Assembly: GCA_937952265.1 (NCBI GenBank)
Contig: CALFYW010000016.1
Location: 270,661 to 334,660, forward strand
Direction: 5' to 3'
Origin: an uncultured bacterium
Lineage (GTDB): Bacteria; Patescibacteriota; Minisyncoccia; Phycocordibacterales; GCA-2401445
DNA length: 64,000 nt
Of the stretch, positions 2,489 to 55,979 are shown in pieces. Made by a program: the position numbers and the translations under genes. The notes under the pieces are model-generated. The model did not search any database, had not been told where the DNA came from, and saw nothing but the letters and a program-made list of their open reading frames with translations. Positions within the stretch are counted from its first letter, which is position 1, and the number at the start of each line of letters is the position of its first letter.

Positions 2489-3463
2489 ATGGAAAAAAAT
2501 CGCACACATCCTGAATACCAATATCTTGACCTACTCCAAGATATTCTTACATCCGGTACCTATAAAAAAGACCATAATACCGGGAATGGGCTTTTAAGTG
2601 TTTTTGGGAGGCAAATTCGATTCGATCTTTCTCAGGGATTTCCGCTACTGACGAGTAAGAAAGTTGCGTGGAAAAGTATTCTTCATGAGCTGTATTGGTT
2701 TATGTCGGGGCAGACAAACATTAAATATTTAGTGGATCACCACGTTCCGATTTGGAATGATTATCCATATAAAATCTATGCAAAGAAAGCAGATAAAGAA
2801 GGGTTGCCAGTGCTTACCCTCGATGAATTTTCTCTACGCATCAAAGAAGATGAGGATTTTGCGAAAGCGCATGGAGAACTCCCTCGTATTTATGGCGAGC
2901 AGTGGCGCGCGTGGCCTGCGTCTGATGGCCGAACGATCGATCAGCTCGCATGGGTCATCAATACTCTTAAAGATTTTCCTGAACGTAAACACGCGATTCT
3001 TTCAGCATGGAATCCTCAATTTCTCTACGCGATGGCCCGACCCGGAGAAGCACTTTCATTCCCGCTCTGCCATATCCTTTTTCATTTTAATGTTAATGTA
3101 GAGAAGCATACGCTTTCATGCTTGCTTTATCAGCGGAGCGCGGATATGTTTTTAGGAGTTCCATTTAATATCGCAAGTTACGCCGCGCTTACCATGATTG
3201 TGGCAAAAATATGTGGATATAAACCAGGAGAATTTATCCATACCTTTGGAGACGCGCATATCTACGAGAACCATCTTTCACAGGTAAAAGAACAGCTCAC
3301 TCGCACACCCAAACCATTTCCAAGGCTTTCAATTGATGATCGTGTGGTAAGCCTTGAGACCTTCTCTCCCGAGCTCGTCTCCCTTATTGGCTATGAATCC
3401 CATCCTCGACTCAAAGGAGAGATGACGGTTGCGGGTGGTTTTGATGAAAAAGATAGAAAATAA
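2489..3463 (+). CDS. thyA: Thymidylate synthase ThyA
   Basis: Catalytic FPLCH motif and PFNIASYAALTMIVAKICGYKPGEFIHTFGDAHIYENH. The ORF opens at 2384, but MEKNRTHPEYQYLDLL at 2489 is the ThyA-like start. Confidence 0.9.
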   Translation: MEKNRTHPEYQYLDLLQDILTSGTYKKDHNTGNGLLSVFGRQIRFDLSQGFPLLTSKKVAWKSILHELYWFMSGQTNIKYLVDHHVPIWNDYPYKIYAKKADKEGLPVLTLDEFSLRIKEDEDFAKAHGELPRIYGEQWRAWPASDGRTIDQLAWVINTLKDFPERKHAILSAWNPQFLYAMARPGEALSFPLCHILFHFNVNVEKHTLSCLLYQRSADMFLGVPFNIASYAALTMIVAKICGYKPGEFIHTFGDAHIYENHLSQVKEQLTRTPKPFPRLSIDDRVVSLETFSPELVSLIGYESHPRLKGEMTVAGGFDEKDRK

Positions 3464-3473
3464 AACAGGGGTT

Positions 3474-5171
3474 ATGATAAAAGATATGGATACGCTACAT
3501 ACTCTTGAGTCATTGGTGCGTGATGCACTACGTACCTTTCCTGATCTAATGGATGTTCCAATTACATTTGAGCACCCTGCTGACTTGTTGCACGGTGATT
3601 TTTCAACGAATGTGGCGATGGTATACGCAAAAAAGATAGGAAAGAAACCCCGTGATTTTGCCGAATATATTGTTGAGAAAATCCAACAAAGGAAGCCTGA
3701 ACTGCTTGAGCGGGTGGTGATTGCTGGCCCTGGATTTGTTAATTTTTATCTTTCGTCCCTCTATTTTAAAAATACCATTGGCGATATTTTAGAGAAAAAG
3801 GAAACATACGGAGAAAATAGTTTACGAAAAGGGGTTCGTGTGCTTATTGAATATACCGATCCTAATCCATTTAAAGAATTTCATATTGGTCACTTAATGC
3901 CCAATATCATCGGGGAATCAATCGGAGCCCTGTTAGAAGCTACCGGCGCAAAGGTAATTCGGGCAAGCTATCAAGGAGATATTGGGCCACATGTCGCAAA
4001 GGCGTTATGGGGATACCGAGCACTTTCAGGTGATAGTGAAGTACGTTGGAATGGTGCCTATGCGCATGGCGCAACCGCGTATGAGAAAGATCCGAAGGTA
4101 AAGGAAGAAATTGATATACTCAATAAAAAATTATATGAAAAAAGCGATCCAGAATTGATGGAGTTGTATGAAGAGGGAAAGAAGCGCTCACTTCTCGCGT
4201 TTGAAAAAATGTATGTTCGCCTCGGCACATCTTTTGATCATTATTTTTTTGAAAGCGAGGTGGCGGACGACGGGATTTCGATTGTTCGAGAATTTCTTAA
4301 AAAAGGAGTATTTGAAGAGAGCGATGGAGCGGTTGTGTTTCGTGGGGATAAATACGGATTGCATACCCGTGTGTTCTTAACTGCCCGAGGACTTCCGACG
4401 TATGAGGCCAAAGAATTAGGGCTTACGAAAAAGAAATTTGATCGAGAGAACCCAGATCTTTCCATTGTTATTACCGCGAATGAGCAGGATGAATATTTCA
4501 AGGTTATTCTTCAGGCGTTAAAGGAGATCTATCCGTATATCGCAGAAAAAACAGTGCATATTTCCCACGGTATGATGCGGCTTTCAAGTGGAAAAATGGG
4601 TTCACGAACGGGTAATGTGATTCGCGCGGCATCATTACTTGATGCCATTGAAAAATTAGTACATGAGAAAATTTCATCGAACACCTTTTCAGCGACTGAA
4701 AAAAGTGAAATTAAATCTTTAGTTGCGGTTGGGGCGGTAAAGTACGCAATTCTGCGACAGGCAATTGGAGGAAATATTGTGTATGACGCAATGAAATCAA
4801 TTTCTTTTGAAGGAGACTCTGGCCCTTATTTGCAGTATACCATCATACGAATGCGCTCATTATTAGAAAAAGGAAAGAGCGAAGAAATCCTTCCTTCACC
4901 CCTTGAGACAAAGGATATTTCTGATGTTGAAAGACTGTTGGTTCGATTTCCTGAAGTGGTGCTTAAAGCTGGTAGCGAACTTGCTCCACACCGAATCGTG
5001 TCCTATCTTATCCAGCTTGCGGGGGCGTTTAATAGCTACTACGCAGCACACCGTATTGTTGACAAAGAAGATGCATTTTCTTCGCATCGTTTGGCGCTCA
5101 CTCAAGCAAGCGAGATAGTTTTAACTCGAGGTTTGCGAATACTTGCGATTCCGATTCCTTCAAAAATGTAG
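3474..5171 (+). CDS. argS: Arginine--tRNA ligase
   Basis: HIGH motif (FHIGHLMPNIIG), Arg-tRNA synthetase N-terminal region and a C-terminal DALR anticodon-binding end; start moved past the thyA stop. Confidence 0.9.
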   Translation: MIKDMDTLHTLESLVRDALRTFPDLMDVPITFEHPADLLHGDFSTNVAMVYAKKIGKKPRDFAEYIVEKIQQRKPELLERVVIAGPGFVNFYLSSLYFKNTIGDILEKKETYGENSLRKGVRVLIEYTDPNPFKEFHIGHLMPNIIGESIGALLEATGAKVIRASYQGDIGPHVAKALWGYRALSGDSEVRWNGAYAHGATAYEKDPKVKEEIDILNKKLYEKSDPELMELYEEGKKRSLLAFEKMYVRLGTSFDHYFFESEVADDGISIVREFLKKGVFEESDGAVVFRGDKYGLHTRVFLTARGLPTYEAKELGLTKKKFDRENPDLSIVITANEQDEYFKVILQALKEIYPYIAEKTVHISHGMMRLSSGKMGSRTGNVIRAASLLDAIEKLVHEKISSNTFSATEKSEIKSLVAVGAVKYAILRQAIGGNIVYDAMKSISFEGDSGPYLQYTIIRMRSLLEKGKSEEILPSPLETKDISDVERLLVRFPEVVLKAGSELAPHRIVSYLIQLAGAFNSYYAAHRIVDKEDAFSSHRLALTQASEIVLTRGLRILAIPIPSKM

Positions 5172-5209: not shown

Positions 5210-8200
5210 ATGCCTCTCATGGAACCGGAAAAGCCGCTGACACTTAAAGAAAAAGAGGAAGAGACTGCTCTTTTTTGGAAAAAAGAAAATATTTTCTCTC
5301 AATCAATTTCACGACCTGCGCCGCAAGGCGATTTTGTATTTTATGATGGCCCTCCATTTGCCACAGGAGTACCACATTATGGGCATGTAGTACCAGGTAC
5401 CATTAAAGACATTATTCCTCGATTTCGAACCATGCAAGGGTTTCGGGTGGCCCGTACTTGGGGTTGGGATTGCCACGGACTTCCGGTTGAAAATATTGTT
5501 GAAAAAGAACTTGGTTTAAATAGTAAAAAAGATATTGAGGCACACGGTATTGCTTCATTCAATGAACGTTCTCGAAAGGTGGTAATGCGTCATGCTTCTG
5601 ATTGGCGGGATATTATCCCCCGTCTTGGAAGGTGGGTAGATATGGATAATGATTATCAGACACTTGATGCGAGTTATACCGAGAGTGTGTGGTGGGTATT
5701 TAAATCTCTTCATGAAAGAGGTTTGATCTATGAAGGGTTTCGGTCTATGCATCTTTGTCCCCGATGCGAGACCACCCTTTCAAATTTTGAGGTTAATTTA
5801 GGTTATCGAGACATCACCGATCAATCAGTGTTTACCCTTTTTCCTCGTACCGGAAAGCAGGGGAGCTTTCTCGTGTGGACCACGACCCCGTGGACACTAC
5901 CCGGAAATACTGCATTAGCGGTAAACCCTGATTTTACCTATGTTCTTGTGGATCAGGTTAAATCCCAAGATGGAGTTGCCTCTTTTGAAGAGCCTATTAT
6001 CCTTGCGAAAGAGCGGATAGAAGACGTGCTTCATGGTTATACGTATCGTATTATTGAGGAATTTTCAGGGGATACATTAGTGGGCGATCACTACGAACCT
6101 CCTTTTTCATACGCTAAAGATCCTACACTTGAAGGTTATGAATCAGGATGGAGAGTGTATCCCGCATCTTTCGTGACTCAAGAGAGCGGCACAGGGATTG
6201 TACATATTGCCCCAGCATTTGGAGAAGACGATTACACACTTTCAAGAAAATACAAACTCCCATTTATTCAGCATGTAAATCGTCAGGGAAGATTTGTTGC
6301 TGGTATGGACGCGCTAAGCGGACTCAAGGTTAAACCAAAAGGAGACCATACCGAAACAGACCAGAAGATTATAACCTTACTTAAAGAAAAAAAATCTCTT
6401 TTTGGAGTACGAGAGATTACGCATGCGTACCCCTTTTGTTGGCGGTGTGAGACGCCACTGCTCAATTACGCGACATCATCATGGTTTGTGAATATTCAAA
6501 AAATTAAACAAAGAATGCTCCATGAGAATGAACAGGTGTCATGGGTTCCGTCCAGTGTTGGCACTGGACGTTTCAAAAACAGTATTAGTGATGCGCCTGA
6601 CTGGGCAATTTCTCGATCTCGATTCTGGGGGGCACCGATGCCGGTATGGAAGAATGTAGCTACGGGGAAGCAGGTTATCATTGGATCTTTTGATGAATTA
6701 AAAAAGTACACTAAAAAATCAGGAAATAACTATCTGGTAATGCGGCATGGAGAATCGGAGAGTAATATTAATGGAGTAGTGAGCTCGGATGTTTCGAATG
6801 AACATCATCTCACCGAAAAAGGGAAACAAGAGGCCGTAGAAAGTGCACAGTCTTTAAAAAATGCTTCAATCGACCTCGTCATTGCTTCAGACTTAGTTCG
6901 TACTAAAGAAACCGCTTATGTGGTTGCTCGTGAACTAGGTTTACCTCAAGAAAAAGTGCTATTTGATTCTCGCATCAGAGAAATTCAAACGGGAATCTTT
7001 AACGGAAAACCGATTGAAGATTACCAGAACTATTTTTCTTCGATTGAGGAAAAGTACCACAAGCAGCCCAATGGAGGAGAAAGTGTAAGTGATATGCGAA
7101 AACGCGTTGGGGCATTCCTGTATGAGCTTGAAGAAAAATATCATGAAAAAAATATTTTGATCGTCACTCATGAGTACGGGGTTTGGCTTATCGAGGCAGT
7201 GTCAAAGGGGTATAACGAAAAAGAAACTATTGCGCTAAAAAAAGACCGTGATGATTTTGTTAAGACTGGCGAAGTACGAAAGTTTGATTTTACTCCATTA
7301 CCACACAATACTTTTTTTGAGCGGGACCTACATCGACCTTATATTGACACCGTGAAGCTCATGGATAAGGACGGTACGGCGCTTGAGCGTATTCCGGACG
7401 TATTTGATTGTTGGTTTGAATCCGGATCTATGCCGTATGGCATGCATCATTATCCCTTTAAAAAGAATAGCTCATTTAATCCTCATGCAGGGTGGTTTCG
7501 CAAATCGAGGGGGTTTCCGGCGGATTTTATTGCCGAAGGACTGGATCAAACTCGGGGCTGGTTTTATTCGCTCATGGCCATTTCAGTTGGTTTGTTTAAG
7601 AAGGCACCGTATCAACATGTGGTTACCAACGGGCTCGTATTGGCGGAGGATGGTCGGAAAATGTCAAAGAGCCTCAAGAATTATCCCGATTTAATGGGAG
7701 TGGTTGATCGATACGGTGCTGATGCGCTTCGGTATTACCTTATGGCATCTCCTATCGTGCGCGGTGAGGATCTTTGTTTTTCAGAGAAGGGAGTTGATGA
7801 GGTTATGAAAAAACTTATTATCCGTTTGGATAATGTAGTTTCATTTTACGCATTGTATCAAAAGGATACTCCTCCGCACCATAAAAGCAGCTCGCCTCTT
7901 GATCAGTGGATTTTAAATCGTCTGTATGCGCTGACATCTCTCATTACTCGTTCATTTGAGGCGTATGAGATTGATCGAGGGGTACGCCCGATTAGCGATT
8001 TTATCGATGATCTTTCAACCTGGTATATCCGCAGGTCGCGCAATCGTTTTAAAGAAGAAGGGAGTGATAAAGAAAACGCCGAGGCAACACTTCGTTTTGT
8101 GCTCCATTATTTTTCTCGCCTGATTGCTCCGGTAATGCCTTTCTTGGCAGAGCGAACTTATCAGGCGGTACGGACTTCGGAGGACGAGGTGAGCGTCCAC

Positions 8201-8725
8201 CTTACTTCGTGGCCTAAAGAGAGAGCGTATGATGAAGGGCTACTTAATCATATGGCGATGGTTCGCGAAATCACCTCTCTTGGTCTGCTCGCTCGCGCGC
8301 GCGCAGAAATTAAGATTCGGCAACCACTCCGTGCGTTATTTGTCCCGGAAAAATATCGAGTATTACCTAAAACACTCCTTTCGTTAGTTGCGGAAGAACT
8401 TAATATTAAAGAAATTGAACCCGCGCCTCATCCCGGGACTGAGGTAACCATTGACACGCATATCACGCAGGAGCTTCGAGAGGAGGGTGCTGTCCGTGAA
8501 CTTATACGAAGTATTCAGGATTTTCGTAAACAATCAGGGTTAACACCCAAAGATTTTCCGCGACTTATGGTAAGTAGTAAAAGTCGTGGACAAACACTGT
8601 TTGAAAAAAATAAGAATGAAATTAAGGAGGCAACTCATGTTCGAGAACTCCATTTTAAACAAATGACTGAGGGTAAGAAGATTGTTGTTGAGAATGAAGA
8701 ATTCATCATTGCGTTTGAGGAGTAG
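5210..8725 (+). CDS. ileS: Isoleucine--tRNA ligase (type 2) carrying an inserted histidine-phosphatase domain
   Basis: PPFATGVPHYGH (HIGH) and KMSKSLKNYPD (KMSKS); WAISRSRFWGAPMPVW and RIPDVFDCWFESGSMPYG are the eukaryote/archaeal-type IleS blocks. An RHG-motif phosphatase domain (about 200 aa) sits between them at about 6707-7330. Confidence 0.9.
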   Translation: MPLMEPEKPLTLKEKEEETALFWKKENIFSQSISRPAPQGDFVFYDGPPFATGVPHYGHVVPGTIKDIIPRFRTMQGFRVARTWGWDCHGLPVENIVEKELGLNSKKDIEAHGIASFNERSRKVVMRHASDWRDIIPRLGRWVDMDNDYQTLDASYTESVWWVFKSLHERGLIYEGFRSMHLCPRCETTLSNFEVNLGYRDITDQSVFTLFPRTGKQGSFLVWTTTPWTLPGNTALAVNPDFTYVLVDQVKSQDGVASFEEPIILAKERIEDVLHGYTYRIIEEFSGDTLVGDHYEPPFSYAKDPTLEGYESGWRVYPASFVTQESGTGIVHIAPAFGEDDYTLSRKYKLPFIQHVNRQGRFVAGMDALSGLKVKPKGDHTETDQKIITLLKEKKSLFGVREITHAYPFCWRCETPLLNYATSSWFVNIQKIKQRMLHENEQVSWVPSSVGTGRFKNSISDAPDWAISRSRFWGAPMPVWKNVATGKQVIIGSFDELKKYTKKSGNNYLVMRHGESESNINGVVSSDVSNEHHLTEKGKQEAVESAQSLKNASIDLVIASDLVRTKETAYVVARELGLPQEKVLFDSRIREIQTGIFNGKPIEDYQNYFSSIEEKYHKQPNGGESVSDMRKRVGAFLYELEEKYHEKNILIVTHEYGVWLIEAVSKGYNEKETIALKKDRDDFVKTGEVRKFDFTPLPHNTFFERDLHRPYIDTVKLMDKDGTALERIPDVFDCWFESGSMPYGMHHYPFKKNSSFNPHAGWFRKSRGFPADFIAEGLDQTRGWFYSLMAISVGLFKKAPYQHVVTNGLVLAEDGRKMSKSLKNYPDLMGVVDRYGADALRYYLMASPIVRGEDLCFSEKGVDEVMKKLIIRLDNVVSFYALYQKDTPPHHKSSSPLDQWILNRLYALTSLITRSFEAYEIDRGVRPISDFIDDLSTWYIRRSRNRFKEEGSDKENAEATLRFVLHYFSRLIAPVMPFLAERTYQAVRTSEDEVSVHLTSWPKERAYDEGLLNHMAMVREITSLGLLARARAEIKIRQPLRALFVPEKYRVLPKTLLSLVAEELNIKEIEPAPHPGTEVTIDTHITQELREEGAVRELIRSIQDFRKQSGLTPKDFPRLMVSSKSRGQTLFEKNKNEIKEATHVRELHFKQMTEGKKIVVENEEFIIAFEE

Positions 8726-8733
8726 GGTGTTAT

Positions 8734-9321
8734 ATGTCGTATCATATTTACACTACTGACGCCTTGATACTCAAAACAGCTCCGGCAGGAGAACGTGATC
8801 TTTCTCTTTTGGTGTTTACGAAAGATTTTGGAATGCTTTCTGTTCGGGCGCGTGGAATTCGGATGATGCAATCAAGATTACGTGCGACGCTTCAAGAACT
8901 CTCTTTTGTACGTCTTTCTTTGGTTCGAGGAAAAGGGGTGTGGCGCGTTACGAGTGCGCAGTTGGTGGATGCTTTCTTTCGAAAGGTACTAAGGCGTTCA
9001 GATATCCAGAAGGTTTTTGGGAATATTGTTTCTTTGTTGCATCGCTTGTCGCCAGAAGCTGAAGAAAATCATACTTTGTATATCGTATTACACCATGGGA
9101 TACACCAGTTGTGCAGTGTGCCAGAAGATCGATTGGTGTTTGTTGAGTATATTACGGTGCTTCGAATGTTGCGCTGTCTCGGATATGTGGGAGATACAAA
9201 GACACTCCAAAGGGTATATGGTAGTATGCCCATTGATCAGGAGGTGCTTCAGGAGGTAGAGAATAAAAAACAGCTGATTATTCAGACCATCAATGAGTCT
9301 CTGGCTGCAACTCAATTGTGA
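8734..9321 (+). CDS. recO: DNA repair protein RecO (short form)
   Basis: MSYHIYTTDALILKTAPAGERDLSLLVFTKDFGMLSVRARG resembles the RecO N-terminal OB fold; 195 aa. Confidence 0.75.
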   Translation: MSYHIYTTDALILKTAPAGERDLSLLVFTKDFGMLSVRARGIRMMQSRLRATLQELSFVRLSLVRGKGVWRVTSAQLVDAFFRKVLRRSDIQKVFGNIVSLLHRLSPEAEENHTLYIVLHHGIHQLCSVPEDRLVFVEYITVLRMLRCLGYVGDTKTLQRVYGSMPIDQEVLQEVENKKQLIIQTINESLAATQL

Positions 9322-33712: not shown

Positions 33713-34439
33713 TTTGGATGGAAGGATCGCTCGTTGACATTTATATAAGTTAAGTAGAGTAGAATAGAAGTGCTTTTAGGTTTACAGCATAACCAAAAAG
33801 CACACATTGAAGATAATATTATTGTGGTCATTAAATTTCCTAATAGGAAATTTAAGGGCGTACGGTGGATGCCTTGACTCTATAGAGCGATGAAGGACGC
33901 AGCAAAGCGGCGATACGCTCCGGGAAGGTGCCAAGCAACCTGTGATCCGGAGATTTCCGAATGGGGAAACCCATCCAGCATTACGCTAGGATAATCTCGT
34001 CTTAAAAAGACGGATAGCGCACCCAGGGAAGTAAAACATTTCAGTACCTGGAGGAAAAGAAACCAATACGTGCTTATTATTGAAAGATAATAAGTCGGCA
34101 TTTCCCAAGTAGCGGCGAGCGAAAAGGAAGAAGCCCAAACCTTTCGACTCGACACTGTGTGTCTCACTCAGAGTAAGCTTTATTAAATAACAGAGTTTAC
34201 GTTACGTGAGGTGCTTAGCGTCGAGTTGAAGGGGGTTGTAAGACAACAACGGTCATTCGACGAAGAGTTATCAAATGTTTTATTAATTGAATTGGCTGGA
34301 AAGCCAGACCCTAGAAGGTAATAGTCCTGTAAATGAAAATAAAACATCTCTTTGGTTGTTGTTCTTGAGTACCTCAGGACACGAATAGCTTGAGGGAAGC
34401 TACCGGAACTAACCGGTAAGGCTAAATATCTATAGAGAT

Positions 34440-34476
<37 letters not shown>

Positions 34477-36410
34477 CAGCCCGGTGAGGGCGGTGAAATA
34501 GACCTGAAACCGTATGCCTACAAGGAGTCGGAGCCCTGAGCTTGTCGAAGGGTGACGGCGTTCCTATTGAAGAATGAGCCAACGAGTTTTTGTATATTGC
34601 AAAGCTAAGCCCGATGGGGTGGAGCTCTAGGGAAACCGAGTGTGAATAGCGCGTAAGTAGTATACAAAAGACCCGAAGCCAGGTGAGCTTGCCATGAGCA
34701 GGGTGAAGGCGGTCGAAAGACCGTCGGAGGCCCGAACCGTTTGGTCGTACAACGCCATCGGATGACTTGTGGTAAGGAGTGAAAAGCTAATCGAACTTGG
34801 TAATAGCTGGTTCTCTCCGAAATAGCTTTTGGGCTAGCGTCGAGGTTACCTTCTGGGGGTAGAGCACTGGATGGTCTAAATAGGGAGCAATCTCGTTAGA
34901 CCAATCAAACTCCGAATACCAGAAGCCATTACTCGGCAGTTAGACTGTGGGCGCTAAGGTCCATTGGTCAAAAGGGAAACAGCCCTTGATCTCCAGTTAA
35001 GGTCCCTAAATTTATGCTCAGTGCACTTAAGGAGGTGAAATTTCTCTGACAGTGAGGAGGTTGGCTTAGAAGCAGCCATCCTTTAAAGAAAGCGTAACAG
35101 CTCACTCACTAAGAGATTTTGCGCCGCAGATTATCGGGGCTTAAGCATAATACCGAAGCTGAGGGCTTGTGAGTTTCATTGAGGATTTTCTGGCAAGTAT
35201 GTTTACATAGTTTGCCTCCTCGATGAAATTCATAAGCGGTAGGAGAGTGTTCATGTCTGCTGTGAAGGAGGCGCGTAAGCAACTCTGGAGCGTCATGAAG
35301 TACGAATGTTGGCACAAGTAACCACAATAGGGGTGAGAGTCCCCTACGCCGAAAAACTAAGGTTTCCTTGGCAATGCAGATCAGCCAAGGGTTAGTCGGT
35401 CCTAAGTGGATGGCGAGAGCCGAACACGATGGATACATGGTTAATATTCCATGACTTTATATATAAGCAATGGGAGGACGGAGGGTAGTAGTATGAGCGC
35501 ATTATTGGATTTGCGTTTATGGTGTGAGAGTGTGGTAGTGGAAAATCCCTACCGCGTAAGCTCAAGCATTGTAGAAATCTGGCGATACGTCAAAGGAGAT
35601 TCATATGAGCACGCTTCCAAGAAAAGTCTCTAGCGTTAATTGTATATAAAACCGTACCGTAAACCGACACAGGTAGTTAGGTCGAGTAGACCAAGGCGAA
35701 CGAGTGAAATTTCCCCAAGGAACTCGGCAAAAAAGCAGCCGTAACTTCGGAATAAGGCTTGCCCTTCGATTCGACACTGTGCGTCTCTATAAGACCCGAG
35801 CATTACAGAGTAGTAAATTAAAAATGCACGGGCCTGAGTGAGACGCTTAGCGTCGAGTCGGGGGGCCGCAGCGAAAGTATGCCTGGCAACTGTTTATCAA
35901 AAACACAGCTTCCTGCGAACTCGTAAGAGGATGTATAGGAGGTGACACCTGACCAATGCCAGAAGGTCAAACAACGGCGGTCTATACCACCATGTACTTG
36001 AATAGTTCGAGTATACGGTGGTGTAGGCTGACTGTTGTAAGCCCTGGTGAATGTCGGCGATAACTATAATCGTCCTAAGGTAGCGCAATTCCTTGTCTGG
36101 TAAGTTCAGACGCGCACGAATGGTGTAATGACTGGGCAACTGTCTCGGGGAATAGCTCGGTGAAAATGCGGTACCGGTGAAGATGCCGGTTACCTACAGC
36201 TAGACGAAAAGACCCCAGAAGCTTTACTATAGCTTGATATTGAGCATATGCTTATAGTGCGTAGCATAGGTGGGAGACTTTGAAGTTTCGCTTTCGGGCG
36301 AAATGGAGTCATCAGTGAAATACCACTCTCTATTGGGGTATGTTCTAACCTCATCGGCAAAAACGGTGAGAGACAGTATCTGGCGGGTAGTTTTAGTGGG
36401 GCGCTATCCT

Positions 36411-37362
36411 TGGTCATATTATTTTAGTTACTAAAATAGTGTGACCTTACTATGGCGCCTCTCTGGAATTCACTCCGAATTCTTAAAAAAATAAATAAGG
36501 GGGTATTTGAGAAATCAAATAGGTAATTAGCTATATGCTGGGAAATCCGGTGTATCCAACAGTACTCAATAAGAGTGAAAATCTGTTTGGTGCGGATAAT
36601 CAGCAGGAAAGGTGCAGAGTTCTTGCAAACACTGCACATCCTCAGAGACTAAACGCTAATCACTCGTAAGAGTGAAATTATAGTCCGATCTTCGTGGCGA
36701 CATGAAGCTTACTACAAATAAATAGTAAGAACCCAATGAACACAAAAGAAATAAGAGATTATAAACAACACCTTAAGTTAACTGACCTACAAAGATCAAT
36801 TTTAGTAGGAACCTTGCTCGGTGATGGCCATTTTGAGACGCAAGATCAAGGTAAAACCTATCGGCTTAAGATTGAGCATCAACGAGCACAGAAAGATTAT
36901 CTGGAATGGCTTTATGAGCAGTTTAAGGAGTGGGTTGGTAATGGAATTCAGCATAGAATAAAGAAAAACGGAAGAGAGTATGTGTTATTTAATACATATT
37001 CTCACGGATCATTCAGATTTTACGCCCAACAGTTCTATGTGAATAGAAAAAAAGTAATTCCAAAACTAATCAAAAAATTACTTGATCCGATTGCGCTAGC
37101 AGTTTGGTATATGGATGACGGATCATGGAAATCAAATCACCACAATACGTTTATAATCCACACTGTTGGATTTGTTAAAAAGGATTTGGAAAGAATTCAG
37201 GATGCTCTAAAAGAAAATTTTGAACTCGAAACAAGTCTTCACAAACAAAAACAAAAGTATTGGAGATTGTATGTAAAATCAAAATCATCCGAAACATTCA
37301 GGAGGATTATTGAGCCCTATACATCACACATCCCTTCAATGCAAAAGAAAATGGGTAACAAA
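36411..37362 (+). mobile_element. Group I-type intron 1 in 23S (domain IV/V, near gggcg|cctaaaaagtaacgg)
   Basis: Conserved 23S sequence breaks after gtggggcg (about 36408) and resumes at cctaaaaagtaacggaggag (about 37363); boundaries approximate. Confidence 0.7.
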
Positions 37363-37377
37363 ATGCCTAAAAAGTAA
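36736..37377 (+). CDS. LAGLIDADG homing endonuclease (double-motif) encoded in intron 1
   Basis: Two motifs, ILVGTLLGDGHF and LAVWYMDDGSW; 213 aa; the stop lies inside the 3' exon (aaaaagTAAcgg). Confidence 0.85.
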   Translation: MNTKEIRDYKQHLKLTDLQRSILVGTLLGDGHFETQDQGKTYRLKIEHQRAQKDYLEWLYEQFKEWVGNGIQHRIKKNGREYVLFNTYSHGSFRFYAQQFYVNRKKVIPKLIKKLLDPIALAVWYMDDGSWKSNHHNTFIIHTVGFVKKDLERIQDALKENFELETSLHKQKQKYWRLYVKSKSSETFRRIIEPYTSHIPSMQKKMGNKMPKK

Positions 37378-37696
37378 CGGAGGAGTTTATTAAGGTTCCC
37401 TAGGCGCGGATGGAAACCGTGCTGATAGTGTAATGGCACAAGGGGGCTTGACTGCAAGGCGTACATGCCGAGCAGGTGCGAAAGCAGAACATAGTGAACC
37501 GCGGGTTCGCATTAGATGCGGCCCAAGATTAACGGATAAAAGCTACTCTGGGGATAACAGGCTGGTTCCGCCTAAGAGTTCATATCGACGGCGGAGTTCG
37601 GCACCTCGATGTCGGCTCGACTTATCCTGGGGGTGGAGAAGCTCCCAAGGGTTTGGCTGTTCGCCAATTAAAAAGTCACGCGAGCTGGGTTCAGAC

Positions 37697-38030
37697 CGTA
37701 GATTATCTAAATAGGGATATATATTTGGGTAATGTACTGTCTGAATTCACTCTGAAAACGACAGTAGTATTGAGTCTTTTTGTCTATGAAATTTAAGATA
37801 GTGCTAATCATATTACGGCGGTCATGTGCAGTAATGCAGCATGATTGAACTGACGTATATCGGTGAAATCCTAGATTCGCGAAATGTGAATTAAAGGACA
37901 ACACCGAGGGAATCATTTATATTTTGGAATATAAATGAGCCCGTAGAGACTAAGTGTCAGTGTTCCTTGAAATAAGGAATAAGTTATAGTCCAATGCACG
38001 AAGTAATTCGTGATACCATGCGTAAGACAG
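37697..38030 (+). mobile_element. ORF-less intron 2 in 23S (peptidyl-transferase region)
   Basis: gggttcagaccgtag|...|cgtaagacaggttggtctcctatctgc splits the conserved GGGTTTAGAACGTCGTGAGACAGTTCGGTCCCTATCTGC by about 335 nt. Confidence 0.6.
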
Positions 38031-38091
38031 GTTGGTCTCCTATCTGCTGTAGGCGTTGATTCTTGAGAAGACTTGCTCCTAGTAAGAAATT

Positions 38092-38928
38092 GCTACTTTC
38101 GAGAGTAATCTCGAATGACAATTCGGCTAATAACGGTGAAGCCTTCATATGGTTTGGTTTTAGAGTTATATCATACACGGTCCATGATGATATAATTTGC
38201 TTGAGGACCAAACCCTCTTTAAGGTAATACCGTGGGAAGTCAGTCTAATAGTGATAAAGCATATATTGCGGGATTTCTTGATGGCGATGGCAGTATTATG
38301 TTGCAAATTAAAAATCGGAATGACACAAAACGTAGTTTTCGATTTATGGCAACAATCTGTCTGTATCAAGATTCTCGTCATGACACAACATTTATTTGGG
38401 TTCGTAGTGTGTTAGGTGTGGGATATCTTTCGAAGCGGAAAGACGGAATGTCAGAGCTTCGTATTAATGGGTACACGCGTGTTAAGAGTATTCTTTTAAT
38501 GCTCTTACCGTTTATTAGGTTTAAAAGAAAGCAAGCACAAGCTATGATTAAAGCTTGTAGTATTCTTGAAACCATTCCATTAAAAAAGATGAAACGTAGC
38601 CACTTAAAAAGACTTGTTGAACTAGTTTTGTTTATTCAAAATCAAAATTATTCAACAAAACGGAAACGAAAAAAAGTTGAGTTTTATCAACAATTAGGCT
38701 TGACCCCGTAACGACTGAACCAACCTGGTTGATAACCACCAGGAAGGAGAGACTGATATACGAGGAATTATCTCTTTGAAGATAACTGCGTATATGGGTA
38801 ATACGCCGACTCCTTAGATTAAAGACTAAGGATGAAGATATAGTCTGCGCTCCTAGAAATAGGGGAAACAAATCCTCAACCATATTTTGTAGTTGTTGGA
38901 TTACGCGACGAGAGGACCGGAGTGAACT
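38092..38928 (+). mobile_element. Intron 3 in 23S, beside the sarcin-ricin loop
   Basis: gctcctagtaag|...|cgacgagaggaccggagtg; about 840-nt insertion carrying a homing endonuclease ORF. Confidence 0.7.
38232..38711 (+). CDS. LAGLIDADG homing endonuclease (single-motif) encoded in intron 3
   Basis: YIAGFLDGDGSIMLQI motif; 159 aa basic protein. Confidence 0.8.
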   Translation: MGSQSNSDKAYIAGFLDGDGSIMLQIKNRNDTKRSFRFMATICLYQDSRHDTTFIWVRSVLGVGYLSKRKDGMSELRINGYTRVKSILLMLLPFIRFKRKQAQAMIKACSILETIPLKKMKRSHLKRLVELVLFIQNQNYSTKRKRKKVEFYQQLGLTP

Positions 38929-39195
38929 GACCTCTGGTGTACGAGCTGTCCTGCCAAGGGCACTGCTCGGTAGCTAAGTCGGGAATGGATAACCTCTGAA
39001 AGCATCTAAGAGGGAAGCCAGCTTCAAGATAAGGAATCGTTTGAGACCCCTAGGAGATGACTAGGTTGATAGGCTCTCGGTGAAAGCACAGTAATGTGTT
39101 GAGCCAAGGAGTACTAATTCGTCGACTCCTATTAGGAAATTTGGTGGCCACTATAATATTATCTTCACTCTACAAGAGCGTTCGTTCGATACTGA

Positions 39196-39306
39196 GTCCT
39201 GGTGATTTGACGCCATGGAAACACCCGTTCCCATTCCGAACACGGAAGTGAAACGTGGTAGTGCCGATGATACTCACTTGGGGAAAGTAGGTAGTCGCCG
39301 GGACTG
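39196..39306 (+). rRNA. rrf: 5S rRNA
   Basis: cctggtgat...cccgttcccattccgaacacggaagtgaaacg...ggtagtcgccggga matches the 5S consensus (CCGAAC...GAAGTGAAAC). Confidence 0.85.
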
Positions 39307-48280: not shown

Positions 48281-49875
<1,595 letters not shown>

Positions 49876-50130
49876 CTAAATTTTTTTTAGAGCTGAAATG
49901 GTCGTTCAGAACTTTTGTTCTGGGATAATGATTCTATATCCTAAAGAAGAATCTGGCTTTCAGGAAAGACTGAATTATGAACGGAACAAAGTAAAACATA
50001 GTATTTGAGACAAAAACCACACAATAACATGTGTGGTTTTTGTGTGATTTCGAAGTCGTAATATTGACAAGTATATGCTTATACAGTATCTTTTTATGGG
50101 TTCCTTCTCACGTTCTAGGAAAGGAGTGTT

Positions 50131-50427
50131 ATGAAAGCATACAAAGAAAGAAAGAGGGTATCAATTTCATTGTATCCTCGCTGTTGGGAGTTCAAATTTC
50201 AGATTGATCCATTTGGATTACCAGCACCATTGCCGTTGCCGAGAACGAAAAGGAAGAAGAGTAAGAAAACAGATACAAAACATCGCGTCAGCGCACCGGA
50301 TCCGAGAGCACTTTTCTCTCGGAAGGAAAAAATGTTTGGGTTTTTAGGAATGCTTATCCTATGGCTCAGTATGGGACTGTTTTGGTTCTTTCGCGATCAG
50401 ACACTCGAGCGTTTATATGCTCGTTGA
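50131..50427 (+). CDS. Small basic protein with C-terminal TM helix (98 aa)
   Basis: Strong RBS aggaaaggag 5 nt before the ATG; two hairpins plus a T-run immediately after the stop. Confidence 0.4.
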   Translation: MKAYKERKRVSISLYPRCWEFKFQIDPFGLPAPLPLPRTKRKKSKKTDTKHRVSAPDPRALFSRKEKMFGFLGMLILWLSMGLFWFFRDQTLERLYAR

Positions 50428-50514
50428 TCTCCCTTTCAGGGAGTCAAAAGCCTCGTTTTTATAACGAGGTTTTTGTTTGAATCATCCCGTACAATCTGCT
50501 ATATTAAGCTTCAT

Positions 50515-50591
50515 GCGCGTGTAGCTCAGCTGGTTAGAGCGCGTCACTGATAATGACGAGGTCCCAGGTTCGAGTCCTGGCATGCGCACCA
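50515..50591 (+). tRNA. tRNA-Ile (GAT), CCA encoded
   Basis: Cloverleaf parsed by hand: acceptor gcgcgtg/catgcgc, anticodon loop ctGATaa, T loop ttcgagt. Confidence 0.9.
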
Positions 50592-53738: not shown

Positions 53739-55907
53739 TTATAATCCGGGCGTTGGCCACGGGGTGATCATAAGCATTTCTTTGTTTTTTAGAAAGGGAA
53801 GCGACTGCCAGATTTCTTCGGTGATGAATGGCATAAAGGGGTGGAGTAGGGTAAGAAGGGTGGTAAGCATATACTGCAAGGTCCATGCTGAAGATTTCCT
53901 CAAGTGTTCATTGTCTCCGCGAAGATTCGCTTTACTTTCTTCAATAATAACATCTGCAAAGGTATGCCAGAAGTAGTGGTAGAGTTTTTCGGACGCGAGA
54001 TATAGACGAAACGATTCGATATCTTGGGTTATCTCTTTGCATACCGCATGGAGCGCCTCGATATATTTTTGGTCTTGTGGTGTTAATTCAGGGATTTGAT
54101 GTTTATCAAAAGGTATATCCCCCGTCTCGCTGATTATCAGCCGGCTCGCATTCCAAATCTTGTTTGCAAAGTGTTTGTACGCTTTTACTTTTTGCTCATC
54201 AAAATTGGCGTCATTTCCAGGACCAATGCCTACCATAAGCGACATGCGCAGCGCGTCAGCGCCATATTGTTCGATAACCTGAATTGGGTCAATGCCATTT
54301 CCGAGTGATTTGCTAAATTTTCGTCCTTGTTTATCACGGAGGATTCCATGGAGATAAACGGTCTTAAATGGTATTGTTCCGAGAAGAAAGGTGGACATAA
54401 GAATCATGCGTGCTACCCAAAAAAAGAGTATTTCATACCCAGGCGCCATTACCGTAGTTGGGTGGTAAGTCTTGAGGTCTTCCGTCTCTTTTGGCCATCC
54501 AAGGGTAGAAAATGTCCAGAGCGCGGAAGAAAACCAGGTATCAAGGGTATCTTCATCTTGCACCCAACCTGATCCTTGCGGCATGTCTTTGCTGATAACT
54601 GCTTCTTCCCCTCGGTACCATACGGGAATACGATGGCCGTACCAGAGTTGCCGTGAGATACACCAATCACGAAGGTTATCAATCCAATGGAAATATATTT
54701 TTTCGAACCGCTCTGGAATGATGGTGATCTCTTTTTGCATGACTGGTTCGCGCATGAGCATCTTAAGGGTTTTCTCTCCGCGTTCTTTGATTGGCTGATT
54801 CACATTCACAAACCATTGCAGTTTTGGCAGTGGTTCAATAATACCCCCACTGCGTTCTGCGGTTGAAACATTGATCACCACTTCTTTTTCATCTTTGAGA
54901 AGTCCTTGTTCGTTAAGCCATGCCACCACGAGCGCGCGCGCCTCTTTTGTTTTTTTGCCTTTGAGTAGCTCTCCGGCGTTTTCATTCATGCGTGCGTGCT
55001 CGTTAATGACCGACAGTATTGGAAGCCCGTGACGTCTTGCGATATCTGCATCAGTGATGCTATGGGCAGGCGTTACACCCACGGCGCCAGTTCCGAATGC
55101 AGGATCAACCGCGGTATCACCCACTACTTTGATATGGATCACGCTTCCCGCGAATGGAATGTTTCTAAATTCTTTACCAATGAAGGCTTGGTATCGTGAG
55201 TCATCAGGGTGCACCGCAACCGCGGTATCGCCAACTTTTGTCTCGGGCCGTGTGGTAGCAATAGGAATCGGGAACTCTTTTCCATAGGTAAAGGTATACA
55301 TTTTGCCCGTTTCTTCGCGGTGTAAAACTTCGTCATCAGAGACGGTGGTTTGTCCTTTCGGGTCCCAATTAATGACACGATGCCCTCGATAAATTAAACC
55401 CGCGTCATACATTTGCTTAAACGCGGCAACAACCGCTTCACTCCGTTTCTCATCAAAAGTAAAAGCTTCACGCGACCAGTCACACGATGCCCCCATGCGT
55501 CGTATTTGTTGTTGGATCGTTCCCCGGCTTTCTGCAACATACTCTTCCACGCGGTGTAAAAATGCTTCGCGTCCAATATCATGGCGGTTTTTTCCTTCAT
55601 TTTTGACGAGTTCTTTCTCGACCTTGGTATTTGTTGCAATGGCTGCATGATCAGTTCCCGGGAGCCATAGGGTATTTTTACCCCGCATACGGGAAAATCG
55701 AATCAGCGCGTCTTGGATTGTATCTTCAAGCGCGTGTCCGAGGTGGAGAATCCCCGTTGCGTTTGGTGGGGGAAGCATAATGGTGAAGGTCTCCTCTCGT
55801 TTCCCCGGGAGATTATCCGGGTTAAAATATCCGCTTTCTTCCCAGCGCGAGTAAATTCTCTCCTCAGTATCTTGAGGATTATATGGCTTGAGAAATTTAT
55901 CCTCCAT
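53739..55907 (-). CDS. valS: Valine--tRNA ligase (compact, no C-terminal coiled coil)
   Basis: PPPNATGILHLGHA (HIGH) and KFSKSLGN (KMSKS); the ORF extends to 55955, but MEDKFLKPYNPQD is the ValS-like start. Confidence 0.9.
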   Translation of the reverse strand: MEDKFLKPYNPQDTEERIYSRWEESGYFNPDNLPGKREETFTIMLPPPNATGILHLGHALEDTIQDALIRFSRMRGKNTLWLPGTDHAAIATNTKVEKELVKNEGKNRHDIGREAFLHRVEEYVAESRGTIQQQIRRMGASCDWSREAFTFDEKRSEAVVAAFKQMYDAGLIYRGHRVINWDPKGQTTVSDDEVLHREETGKMYTFTYGKEFPIPIATTRPETKVGDTAVAVHPDDSRYQAFIGKEFRNIPFAGSVIHIKVVGDTAVDPAFGTGAVGVTPAHSITDADIARRHGLPILSVINEHARMNENAGELLKGKKTKEARALVVAWLNEQGLLKDEKEVVINVSTAERSGGIIEPLPKLQWFVNVNQPIKERGEKTLKMLMREPVMQKEITIIPERFEKIYFHWIDNLRDWCISRQLWYGHRIPVWYRGEEAVISKDMPQGSGWVQDEDTLDTWFSSALWTFSTLGWPKETEDLKTYHPTTVMAPGYEILFFWVARMILMSTFLLGTIPFKTVYLHGILRDKQGRKFSKSLGNGIDPIQVIEQYGADALRMSLMVGIGPGNDANFDEQKVKAYKHFANKIWNASRLIISETGDIPFDKHQIPELTPQDQKYIEALHAVCKEITQDIESFRLYLASEKLYHYFWHTFADVIIEESKANLRGDNEHLRKSSAWTLQYMLTTLLTLLHPFMPFITEEIWQSLPFLKNKEMLMITPWPTPGL

Positions 55908-55979
55908 AGCAAGGATAATAACAGAAATAGCGCAATTCTCAATAATCGTAAGCACTCATGGATCCTAAGAATTTTCGGT

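Follow-up and report, generated by a model that had tools for sequence, protein, structure and literature searches.

Aminoacyl-tRNA synthetases are among the best-studied enzymes, and accessory catalytic domains nested in bacterial synthetase cores are, to our knowledge, rare. Here we describe such an arrangement in ileS, the isoleucyl-tRNA synthetase (IleRS) gene of a 64,000-nucleotide stretch of contig CALFYW010000016.1 from an uncultured bacterium of the candidate phyla radiation (the window, meaning that whole stretch), which carries a complete histidine phosphatase domain, apparently active, within its CP3 subdomain. The closest described relatives of the host are the type-2 IleRSs of T. 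thermophilus (1ILE), P. megaterium (IleRS2, 8C8U) and the cytosol of Candida, yeast and human, with which the window enzyme shares the HIGH and KMSKS signatures and a domain order of Rossmann fold, CP core, CP1 editing, CP2, CP3, anticodon-binding and DUF5915. CP3, corresponding to residues 473-534 in Candida IleRS, is a beta-beta-alpha-alpha unit that joins CP2 and the latter half of the Rossmann fold; it is peripheral and variable among IleRSs, and holds a zinc-binding motif in T. thermophilus IleRS (PMC7191050).

The closest described relatives of the insert are the small branch-1 histidine phosphatases PhoE (1H2E), CobC (6NRU, 6E4B), PspA (4IJ5) and Rv2419c (4QIH), which have the same fold and size and share with it the R-H-G...N...R...E...H constellation. 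Among them, CobC is named as an alpha-ribazole phosphatase, PspA as a phosphoserine phosphatase and Rv2419c as a glucosyl-3-phosphoglycerate phosphatase. Precedents for related combinations are known from a GNAT-bearing IleRS model and from RNase H-CobC fusions.

A phosphatase domain between the two CP3 helices

The host gene and the elements of the insertion are arranged as follows, with amino acid (aa) numbers referring to the window IleRS.

5210..8725, + strand: ileS, encoding the type-2 (eukaryote/archaeal-like) IleRS that hosts the phosphatase; a single unbroken open reading frame (ORF) of 1171 aa
6647..6709, + strand: N-terminal half of CP3, a beta-hairpin (aa 479-490) and a helix (aa 494-500), from AlphaFold2 (AF2) secondary structure, a 66-ortholog consensus, junction comparison and PMC7191050
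6710..6727, + strand: N-linker TKKSGN (aa 501-506), with S504 in 57 of 66 orthologs and N506 in all 66
6728..7279, + strand: branch-1 histidine phosphatase domain (aa 507-690), from Pfam PF00300, AF2 and Foldseek
6743-6748, + strand: catalytic R512-H513 within the phosphatase domain
6764-6766, + strand: N519 of the phosphatase, 97% conserved in 66 orthologs
6899-6901, + strand: R564 of the phosphatase, invariant in 66 orthologs
6980-6982, + strand: E591 of the phosphatase, invariant in 66 orthologs
7169-7171, + strand: H654 of the phosphatase, invariant in 66 orthologs
7280..7324, + strand: C-linker KFDFTPLPHNTFFER (aa 691-705), found in the inserted form only, with F694, P698, H699, N700 and E704 at least 91% conserved
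7325..7423, + strand: C-terminal half of CP3, comprising the DLHRPYID helix and the second half of the former zinc knuckle up to DCWFESG; the alignment resumes at D706

A sequence-only reading of the window had placed a complete histidine phosphatase in IleS at 6707-7330 (aa 500-707), with a frame continuous over both junctions. The coordinates proved right, both flanking IleS blocks that it quoted are present, and the frame runs through both junctions as part of the single ORF. Pfam analysis of the whole protein gave tRNA-synt_1, His_Phos_1, tRNA-synt_1, Anticodon_1 and DUF5915 in this order, so that the nesting of His_Phos_1 in tRNA-synt_1 proposed as a check was recovered, with the PF00300 match at aa 509-655 (E 1.7e-28; 100.1 bits against a cutoff of 21.7). 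The isolated insert matched PF00300 with an E value of 6.7e-30 and 104.6 bits.

The position of the insert was defined by comparison with solved IleRS structures, in which aa 10-500 of the window protein align with human IleRS 10-491 and aa 706-1072 with 498-883. Given that the alignment breaks at 500/706 (human 491/498), about 205 residues stand in place of a loop of about 6 residues. The full-length AF2 model (predicted local distance difference test, pLDDT, 91.4; predicted template modelling score, pTM, 0.84) gave the hairpin at aa 479-490, the helix at 494-500, the phosphatase at 507-692 and a further helix at 711-714, an order that places the insert between the two CP3 helices. Thus, the insertion described by the sequence-only reading as lying in the catalytic core is hosted by the peripheral CP3 subdomain instead (PMC7191050). 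The spacing from WxISR to WF(D/E)SG is 275 aa in the window IleRS versus 71-77 aa in insert-less relatives, for which a linker of about 60 aa had been suggested, a figure that was roughly right in size. Insert-less IleS proteins have an ordinary loop of 6-15 aa at the exact insertion point (...ELKKKAGVSEINDLHRP... in the L081 protein), and H708, P710, D713, R727 and D733 in the C-terminal half of CP3 are invariant in the 66 orthologs.

Two further observations concern CP3 itself. The Cys pairs flanking the insert (WkC..C ... C.cG, the zinc knuckle) are kept in most orthologs, and the window IleRS has lost all four, reading KNVATG (6650-6670, aa ~481-487) and MDKDGT (7364-7380, aa ~719-724) at these places. 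In the full-length AF2 model, pLDDT fell below 50 only at the first five N-terminal residues and at VFDCW (aa 731-735; 7400-7414), where the conserved DCWFESG motif of the active site begins right behind CP3.

Modelled alone, the insert folded with a pLDDT of 92.1 and a pTM of 0.89. Foldseek matched this model to PspA, CobC, Rv2419c and PhoE with a probability of 1.00 (target TM 0.74-0.78, or 0.70-0.78 over the individual entries 1H2E, 6NRU, 6E4B, 4IJ5 and 4QIH; 21-27% identity), and mycobacterial hydrolases also superposed on it, while no SixA-type entry stood among the 50 best Foldseek matches listed. The best superpositions were with PspA 4IJ5/4IJ6 and PhoE 1H2E (root-mean-square deviation 2.2-2.4 A over 175-176 columns). 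At about 184 aa, the domain is shorter than phosphoglycerate mutases (about 230-250 aa), and it scored below the cutoffs of phosphoglycerate mutase models (NF038349, TIGR01258 and others; 80-85 bits versus 225, and 27 versus 81.7), of the alpha-ribazole phosphatase CobC models TIGR03162 and NF011580 (72-76 versus 162.9, and 65-70 versus 250), of the phosphoserine phosphatase PspA model NF045917 (62-66 versus 350) and of the phosphohistidine phosphatase SixA model TIGR00249 (36 versus 74.5, in its N-terminal part only). By these profile scores, the insert is a member of the histidine phosphatase superfamily but of no characterised subfamily, and since it stays below all curated phosphatase equivalog cutoffs, its substrate is not inferable from subfamily membership.

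Conservation was expressed as a mean majority-residue measure over 66 full-length orthologs. R512, H513, G514, R564, E591, R632 and H654 are invariant, and E624 reaches 98%. The insert as a whole scores 0.55, compared with 0.58 for both the editing and the anticodon domains, and the segment corresponding to aa 486-706 measures 215-227 aa in 64 of the 66 orthologs. As read from the alignment, purifying selection acts on the insert, which is conserved to the same degree as the editing domain. The proposed check for an intact phosphatase active site likewise turned out in its favour: the catalytic residues are present in a confidently modelled fold, and the insert is complete and, as far as its residues and model indicate, catalytically competent.

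The synthetase around the insert is equally intact. NCBIfam model TIGR00392 (ileS) matched the window protein with 860.6 bits versus a cutoff of 621.4, in two stretches with the insert between them, and Pfam found the anticodon-binding domain PF08264 (E 1.1e-28) and a DUF5915-type C-terminus (PF19302). A PDB search returned the human, yeast, Candida, P. megaterium IleRS2 and T. thermophilus enzymes at E values around 1e-190 (4e-188 to 6e-199), while type-1 IleRSs were weaker (1e-77 to 7e-87). These matches assign the window IleRS to the type-2 subgroup, nearer to the eukaryotic, archaeal and T. thermophilus enzymes than to type-1 bacterial ones. The mupirocin-resistance models MupA (NF000257) and MupB (NF000258) gave 643 and 638 bits, below their cutoff of 1900, and the ileS_w_GNAT model (NF040702) gave 311.6 bits against 1999, with no acetyltransferase Pfam match in the protein. 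The following signatures and neighbouring genes complete the locus.

5375..5386, + strand: HIGH-type signature of the synthetic site (H56-Y-G-H59), with H56 and G58 invariant and H59 at least 90% conserved in 120 homologs
5876..6235, + strand: CP1 editing motifs WTTTPWTLPGN (aa 223-233) and GTGIVHIAPAFGEDD (aa 327-341), with invariant positions in 120 homologs
7658..7672, + strand: KMSKS signature (aa 817-821), with K817 and K820 invariant and M818 at least 90% conserved in 120 homologs
3429..5171, + strand: argS, the conserved upstream neighbour, an ORF whose synteny is repeated in related loci
8734..9321, + strand: recO-like gene, the conserved downstream neighbour, an ORF with a RecO_N Pfam match on an identical locus and synteny in related loci

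The CP1 editing residues invariant in the 120 homologs are W223, T224-T226, W228, H332 and D341. The IleRS signatures are intact, and by these motifs the IleRS is complete. The window holds one ileS and one phosphatase copy.

Distribution, exchange and probable repeated capture

An assembly chimera, a frameshift artefact or a recent foreign insertion private to this contig could produce a composite ORF of this kind. At least 6 contigs, drawn from NCBI, ENA and Logan assemblies, encode a protein identical to the window IleRS; two of these contigs match the window DNA identically over 5516 nt with both junctions included, and GC content shows no break across the continuous ORF. A scan of GTDB with one genome per species, using a three-sequence alignment of the insert as query, recovered relatives that match across both junctions from the genomes of at least 214 species, and the junctions are common to hundreds of species at 39-54% identity. 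Identical DNA in independent assemblies, unbroken frame and composition, and shared junctions all speak against an artefact, which we regard as exceedingly improbable; the earlier claim of a genuine domain insertion was thereby borne out, and the homologues with the same insertion point for which it called were found.

The best 80 of these at least 214 genomes were all Patescibacteria/Parcubacteria metagenome-assembled genomes, including Yonath-, Nomura-, Adler-, Lloyd-, Wolfe- and Vogelbacteria, RAAC4_OD1_1 and GW2011 genomes. With ORFs picked on the basis of BLAST, IleS plus insert formed one continuous ORF in nearly all scanned genomes. PF00300 lay inside IleS in all 120 full-length homologs among the matches listed, whose source labels read only 'isoleucyl-tRNA synthetase', 'class I tRNA ligase family protein' or 'hypothetical', and an exhaustive search of 1.84 billion cluster representatives yielded 1434 that are related to the insert at E<=1e-10. 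The genomes indicate that a large lineage of Patescibacteria (Paceibacteria/Parcubacteria) has the phosphatase-bearing form as its normal IleRS, which is thus no isolated oddity.

Some apparent exceptions were set aside. L085 (3657-7147) and L114 had been candidates for a free-standing type and were rejected as frameshifted genes of the inserted type; their ileS is split into 3-4 overlapping ORFs, most likely by assembly frameshift errors, and such fragments appear in public records as 'histidine phosphatase family protein, partial' or even 'ribosomal protein S21'. Proteins of about 750 aa that begin some 80 aa before the phosphatase were likewise rejected as split IleS, given that they start at a conserved internal Met (RMSDLR...) and represent truncated gene calls.

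The nearest relatives of the insert outside IleS are proteins of about 200 aa that end in ...TGEVRKLK. In L081, L083 and L084 the phosphatase gene is followed after 3-5 nt by an ileS with no insert, whose products are 919 aa (truncated where the contig ends) up to 961 aa long, and the gene order argS-phosphatase-ileS-recO corresponds to the synteny of the window. Translational packing of this kind, with argS before it and ileS after it, is the usual setting of the free-standing gene. The free-standing phosphatase P0198 is likewise directly upstream of an insert-less ileS, and this arrangement was found at 28 loci in all. A metagenome scan with the free-standing family gave 57 loci; in each, the phosphatase was nested in ileS or directly preceded an ileS with no insert. 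At the level of gene organization, these loci show that the phosphatase module is autonomous and that insertion is not required. The C-linker pattern F..LP[HY]N...ELDLHRP occurs in essentially all of about 200 CP3-tip insertions and is absent from the free-standing proteins. A C-linker common to the CP3-tip insertions points to a single origin, and thus argues for an ancient CP3-tip architecture that would have arisen once at that site.

Comparison of closely related loci indicated which part of the locus had moved. Identity between L110 and L108 is 91% for RecO, 76% for the phosphatase and 67% for ArgS, and 42% for the IleS body; between L088 (free-standing) and L096 (inserted) it is 73% for RecO, 79% for the phosphatase, 68% for ArgS and 46% for IleS. 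Such identities show that phosphatase and RecO co-diverge among close relatives while the IleS body appears exchanged. In a neighbour-joining tree of the IleS body, free-standing-type loci occupied at least 5 separate positions (bootstrap 100 for the F12 clade, for L081/L108/L119, for L109 with L121 and for L132/L133; 61 for the L093 grouping), and in the domain tree free-standing phosphatases nested among inserted ones. We infer that the inserted form was probably ancestral in this clade and that a foreign insert-less ileS replaced the resident body, with the phosphatase retained as a gene of its own. No IleS decay remnants were found in the gaps of L106, L113, L126, L118 and L119, and no linker relic past the L113 stop codon. 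Since the phosphatase was kept upon host exchange, it would seem to be selected in its own right and not to need covalent attachment.

ArgS showed a comparable pattern: at least 3 very different types occur among organisms with RecO and phosphatase 55-90% identical (L081-L133), and those of L119 and L093 are about 28% identical to the others. Divergent ArgS types among close relatives suggest that in-situ replacement hits both synthetase genes of the locus.

Histidine phosphatase domains also occur elsewhere in class-Ia synthetases. With the common CP3-tip site of IleRS designated S1, additional IleRS domains were found at S2, between DLHR and WFESG (P0227, P0272, P0251), at S3, between WFESG and DQxRGWF (P0251, P0281), and at S4, after KMSKS (P0281), and these additional domains often co-occur in one IleRS. 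The gene for P0281 is complete (1419 aa) and lies on a contig of 28.6 kb. P0227, P0272, P0251 and P0281 (the last at locus L143, 5001-9260) are IleRSs with two or three phosphatase domains off the CP3 tip; L143 lacks the argS/recO synteny, has an SLH-domain neighbour and may belong to a different lineage.

Valyl-tRNA synthetase (ValRS) hosts such domains as well. Among 119 listed relatives of P0139, 70 hold 1-3 histidine phosphatase copies in tandem; these are complete genes on contigs of up to 1.37 Mb, and those with a named source bear the label Gracilibacteria or Peregrinibacteria (P0285-P0402; loci L144 and L145). The site between WxISRQ..WG and DTWFSS, equivalent to CP3, holds 72 of 83 copies, a further copy before the WxISRQ motif was seen in 8 cases, and RHG is kept in 78 of 81 copies. 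The ValRS linkers are unrelated to those of IleRS, and the ValRS domains match the window insert with a median of 41 bits and about 26% identity, compared with 53 bits for CobC. Unrelated linkers and a similarity no closer than that of CobC indicate an independent capture from a different phosphatase lineage; the same reasons led us to discard recombinational copying from IleRS as the source of the ValRS inserts. Wherever the domain was not free-standing among the best 150 relatives, its host was IleRS or ValRS. We infer from these architectures that histidine phosphatase domains have probably been captured repeatedly and independently, at three further IleRS sites and at the CP3 site of ValRS. 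The catalytic set R-H-R-(E/D)-H is kept in essentially every copy in all contexts (free-standing, S2-S4 and ValRS); of 49 free-standing copies, 38 have E591 and 11 a conservative E-to-D change.

The ValRS encoded in the window itself (53739..55955, - strand, 738 aa) contains no insert in its short CP3; it ends soon after the anticodon-binding region, and its C-terminal coiled-coil domain is apparently missing, the listed ValRS relatives without inserts being about 880-930 aa long. In a separate case, P0246 (L153, 5001-8201), an IleS-like ORF carries an in-frame IS200-type Y1 transposase domain inside the editing region together with the CP3 phosphatase and a GNAT acetyltransferase after WFESG, followed by a stop. 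No IleS continuation was found on its contig after the GNAT domain, and P0246 was rejected as a functional architecture because its ORF stops there; it is probably a decaying or chimeric copy, which shows how many foreign domains such genes can gather.

What the phosphatase may do at the synthetase

Taken together, we lean slightly towards a bifunctional protein as a whole explanation, in which a functional type-2 IleRS would host in its CP3 loop a self-contained small phosphatase of the PhoE/CobC/PspA type that is coupled to the synthetase. Confidence in the structural and evolutionary part of this explanation is high, while the functional coupling of the phosphatase to class-Ia synthetases, as suggested by sequence comparison, is evenly poised. 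Judging from family chemistry, catalysis would proceed through a phospho-His513 intermediate, with R512, R564, N519 and H654 holding the phosphoryl group and E591 acting as proton donor. Members of the superfamily move a terminal phosphoryl group to histidine, and the phosphate of an adenylate is doubly substituted. An aminoacyl-adenylate, which the sequence-only reading had entertained as a possible substrate, is therefore unlikely, and the predicted target is a terminal phosphate whose carrier is most likely a small molecule, because the fold is small-capped and best matches small-molecule phosphatases. The phosphatase might act on a phosphorylated species made or bound at these synthetases, for which inorganic pyrophosphate (PPi) or a nucleotide monophosphate would be candidates, and a phosphorylated tRNA end or a phospho-protein less likely ones. 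On-site clearing of PPi or AMP might drive the activation and editing cycles; alternatively, a blocking phosphate could be removed from the tRNA acceptor end or from the synthetase. Repeated independent capture in IleRS and ValRS is the reason for thinking that tethering to, or co-expression with, a class-Ia editing synthetase may have been selected. That the phosphatase constitutes an unrecognised accessory function of class-Ia editing synthetases in Patescibacteria, acting on species at IleRS and ValRS, is put forward tentatively. If true, such coupling would explain both the convergent CP3 capture in two paralogous enzymes and the retention of the phosphatase in the ileS operon when it is separate.

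Several points weigh against coupling. The insert falls under the cutoff of every curated phosphatase subfamily model, including dPGM, CobC, PspA, GpmB and SixA. At least two free-standing relatives (P0224 and P0163) have neighbourhoods unrelated to ileS, so the enzyme can act without any link to a synthetase. In the larger domain tree, deep nodes have bootstraps of about 0, which makes the number and direction of transitions between inserted and free-standing forms uncertain. The literature found, including PMC7191050, reports no role for CP3 in catalysis or tRNA binding. Recurrent capture could result from a permissive loop and an abundant compact domain with nearby termini, and adjacency to ileS after separation could be historical instead of selected.

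These points lead to the alternative that a housekeeping enzyme with an unrelated metabolic role (on sugar-phosphates, phosphoserine or nucleotides) is tolerated in a permissive surface loop, where nesting in an essential, constitutive gene would keep its expression stable and, in a streamlined genome, shield it from deletion, with no link to aminoacylation. The relatives unlinked to ileS and the 28 loci where the module lacks covalent attachment fit this alternative, as do the generic small-phosphatase fold with its best matches among metabolic phosphatases, the peripheral and variable nature of CP3 with no known catalytic role (PMC7191050), and the acceptance of other foreign domains by these synthetases (GNAT and Y1 transposase in P0246; the ileS_w_GNAT model). 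However, it does not readily account for independent captures of different phosphatases at four sites of IleRS and two of ValRS, for the confinement of the non-free architectures to these two enzymes, or for the separated gene staying immediately upstream of ileS in two distinct clades despite replacement of the ileS body. We consider this the main alternative, if rather doubtful.

The superfamily also includes the protein phosphatases SixA, Sts-1 and PGAM5, and a role in macromolecular repair or counter-defence was considered, in which an inhibitory phosphate would be removed from a synthetase modified, for instance, by HipA-type kinase toxins, or from a tRNA end carrying a 3'-phosphate or a pyrophosphate added by RelA/SpoT-type toxins, to restore chargeability. 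A recurrent, synthetase-specific association with multiple tandem copies would suit such a role, and there is a weak match to the SixA NCBIfam model (36 bits, below cutoff). By contrast, the small-cap fold matches small-molecule phosphatases best, with the SixA type absent from the 50 best matches listed, no toxin-based rationale is obvious for a restriction to IleRS and ValRS, and the mildly acidic insert (net charge -7, pI 5.5) bears no RNA-binding signature, which together make repair improbable. Insert charge follows the proteome; tRNA binding by the insert, tested via charge, found no support because its pI tracks that of the proteome. A catalytically dead insert that modulates IleRS conformation or senses a phosphorylated metabolite is less probable still, and very unlikely in our estimate: ligand sensing is conceivable for this fold and the strongly conserved linkers suggest a fixed geometry, but essentially every copy retains the nucleophile His, both Arg, the acid (Glu/Asp) and the second His, and free-standing genes keep the catalytic set yet cannot serve as structural elements of IleRS.

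Significance and comparison with known systems

No description of a histidine phosphatase in IleRS or ValRS was found in the full-text literature, subscription-only papers lying outside this scope, in agreement with the sequence-only reading, which had known of none. The sequences and automatic domain matches are already public, and it is the architecture that seems to be undescribed; the surprising elements are its lineage-wide distribution, the interconversion between a domain inside the synthetase and a gene beside it, and the fact that ValRS acquired its phosphatase convergently. In a major, poorly understood radiation of ultra-small bacteria, IleRS includes a whole second enzyme as a fixed part, and ValRS made an analogous capture independently. 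If coupled to aminoacylation or editing, it would represent a new auxiliary step of tRNA charging and hint at a peculiar nucleotide, PPi or tRNA metabolism in these symbionts. If uncoupled, it would be a clean natural case of domain nesting and of reversible conversion between nested domain and neighbour gene, and would also show an essential synthetase gene replaced in situ among close relatives. Annotation is affected in either case, given that thousands of such proteins carry only the three labels cited above.

Elsewhere in the window, the 23S rRNA gene matched only model positions 15-2044 (33856-36168) and 2103-2284 (36226-36406). These parts are followed by a group I intron match at 37799-38013 (51.9 bits; gathering score 50), and no match to the 3' third of 23S was reported before the 5S gene at 39198-39303. 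The 16S gene lies at 48282-49866, with tRNA-Ile(GAT) after it, and is separated from the upstream 23S-5S by about 9 kb; the rRNA region comprises 33856-39303 and 48282-50591. This arrangement suggests a 23S gene interrupted by an intron or insertion, and unlinked rRNA genes.

Compared with the type-2 IleRSs of known structure, the window enzyme differs by about 205 extra residues between the CP3 helices, where solved structures have about 6, and the zinc-knuckle cysteines of T. thermophilus CP3, which most of its orthologs keep, are all four lost in the window copy. Compared with the small branch-1 phosphatases, the insert is only 21-27% identical, and is nested in, or operon-linked to, an aminoacyl-tRNA synthetase.

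Three composite proteins come closest to this architecture. The RNase H/CobC-type acid phosphatase (Rv2228c type, NF005567) also joins a CobC-like phosphatase to a nucleic-acid enzyme, and the insert matches its phosphatase half at 70-74 bits (below the cutoff of 326); that protein is an end-to-end fusion with another partner enzyme, whereas the window has a nested insertion. The ileS_w_GNAT family (NF040702) is a curated precedent of an IleRS hosting a whole accessory enzyme domain, but the domain and the site are different: aa 320-483 of the window protein correspond to model positions 499-657, so that the ~180 extra residues of ileS_w_GNAT lie N-terminal to aa 320. Finally, the ValRSs of Gracilibacteria and Peregrinibacteria are likewise class-Ia editing synthetases, with 1-3 catalytically intact His_Phos_1 domains at the CP3-equivalent site; by contrast with IleRS, their linkers are unrelated and their phosphatases belong to a distinct lineage, consistent with convergent capture and not with the same insertion.

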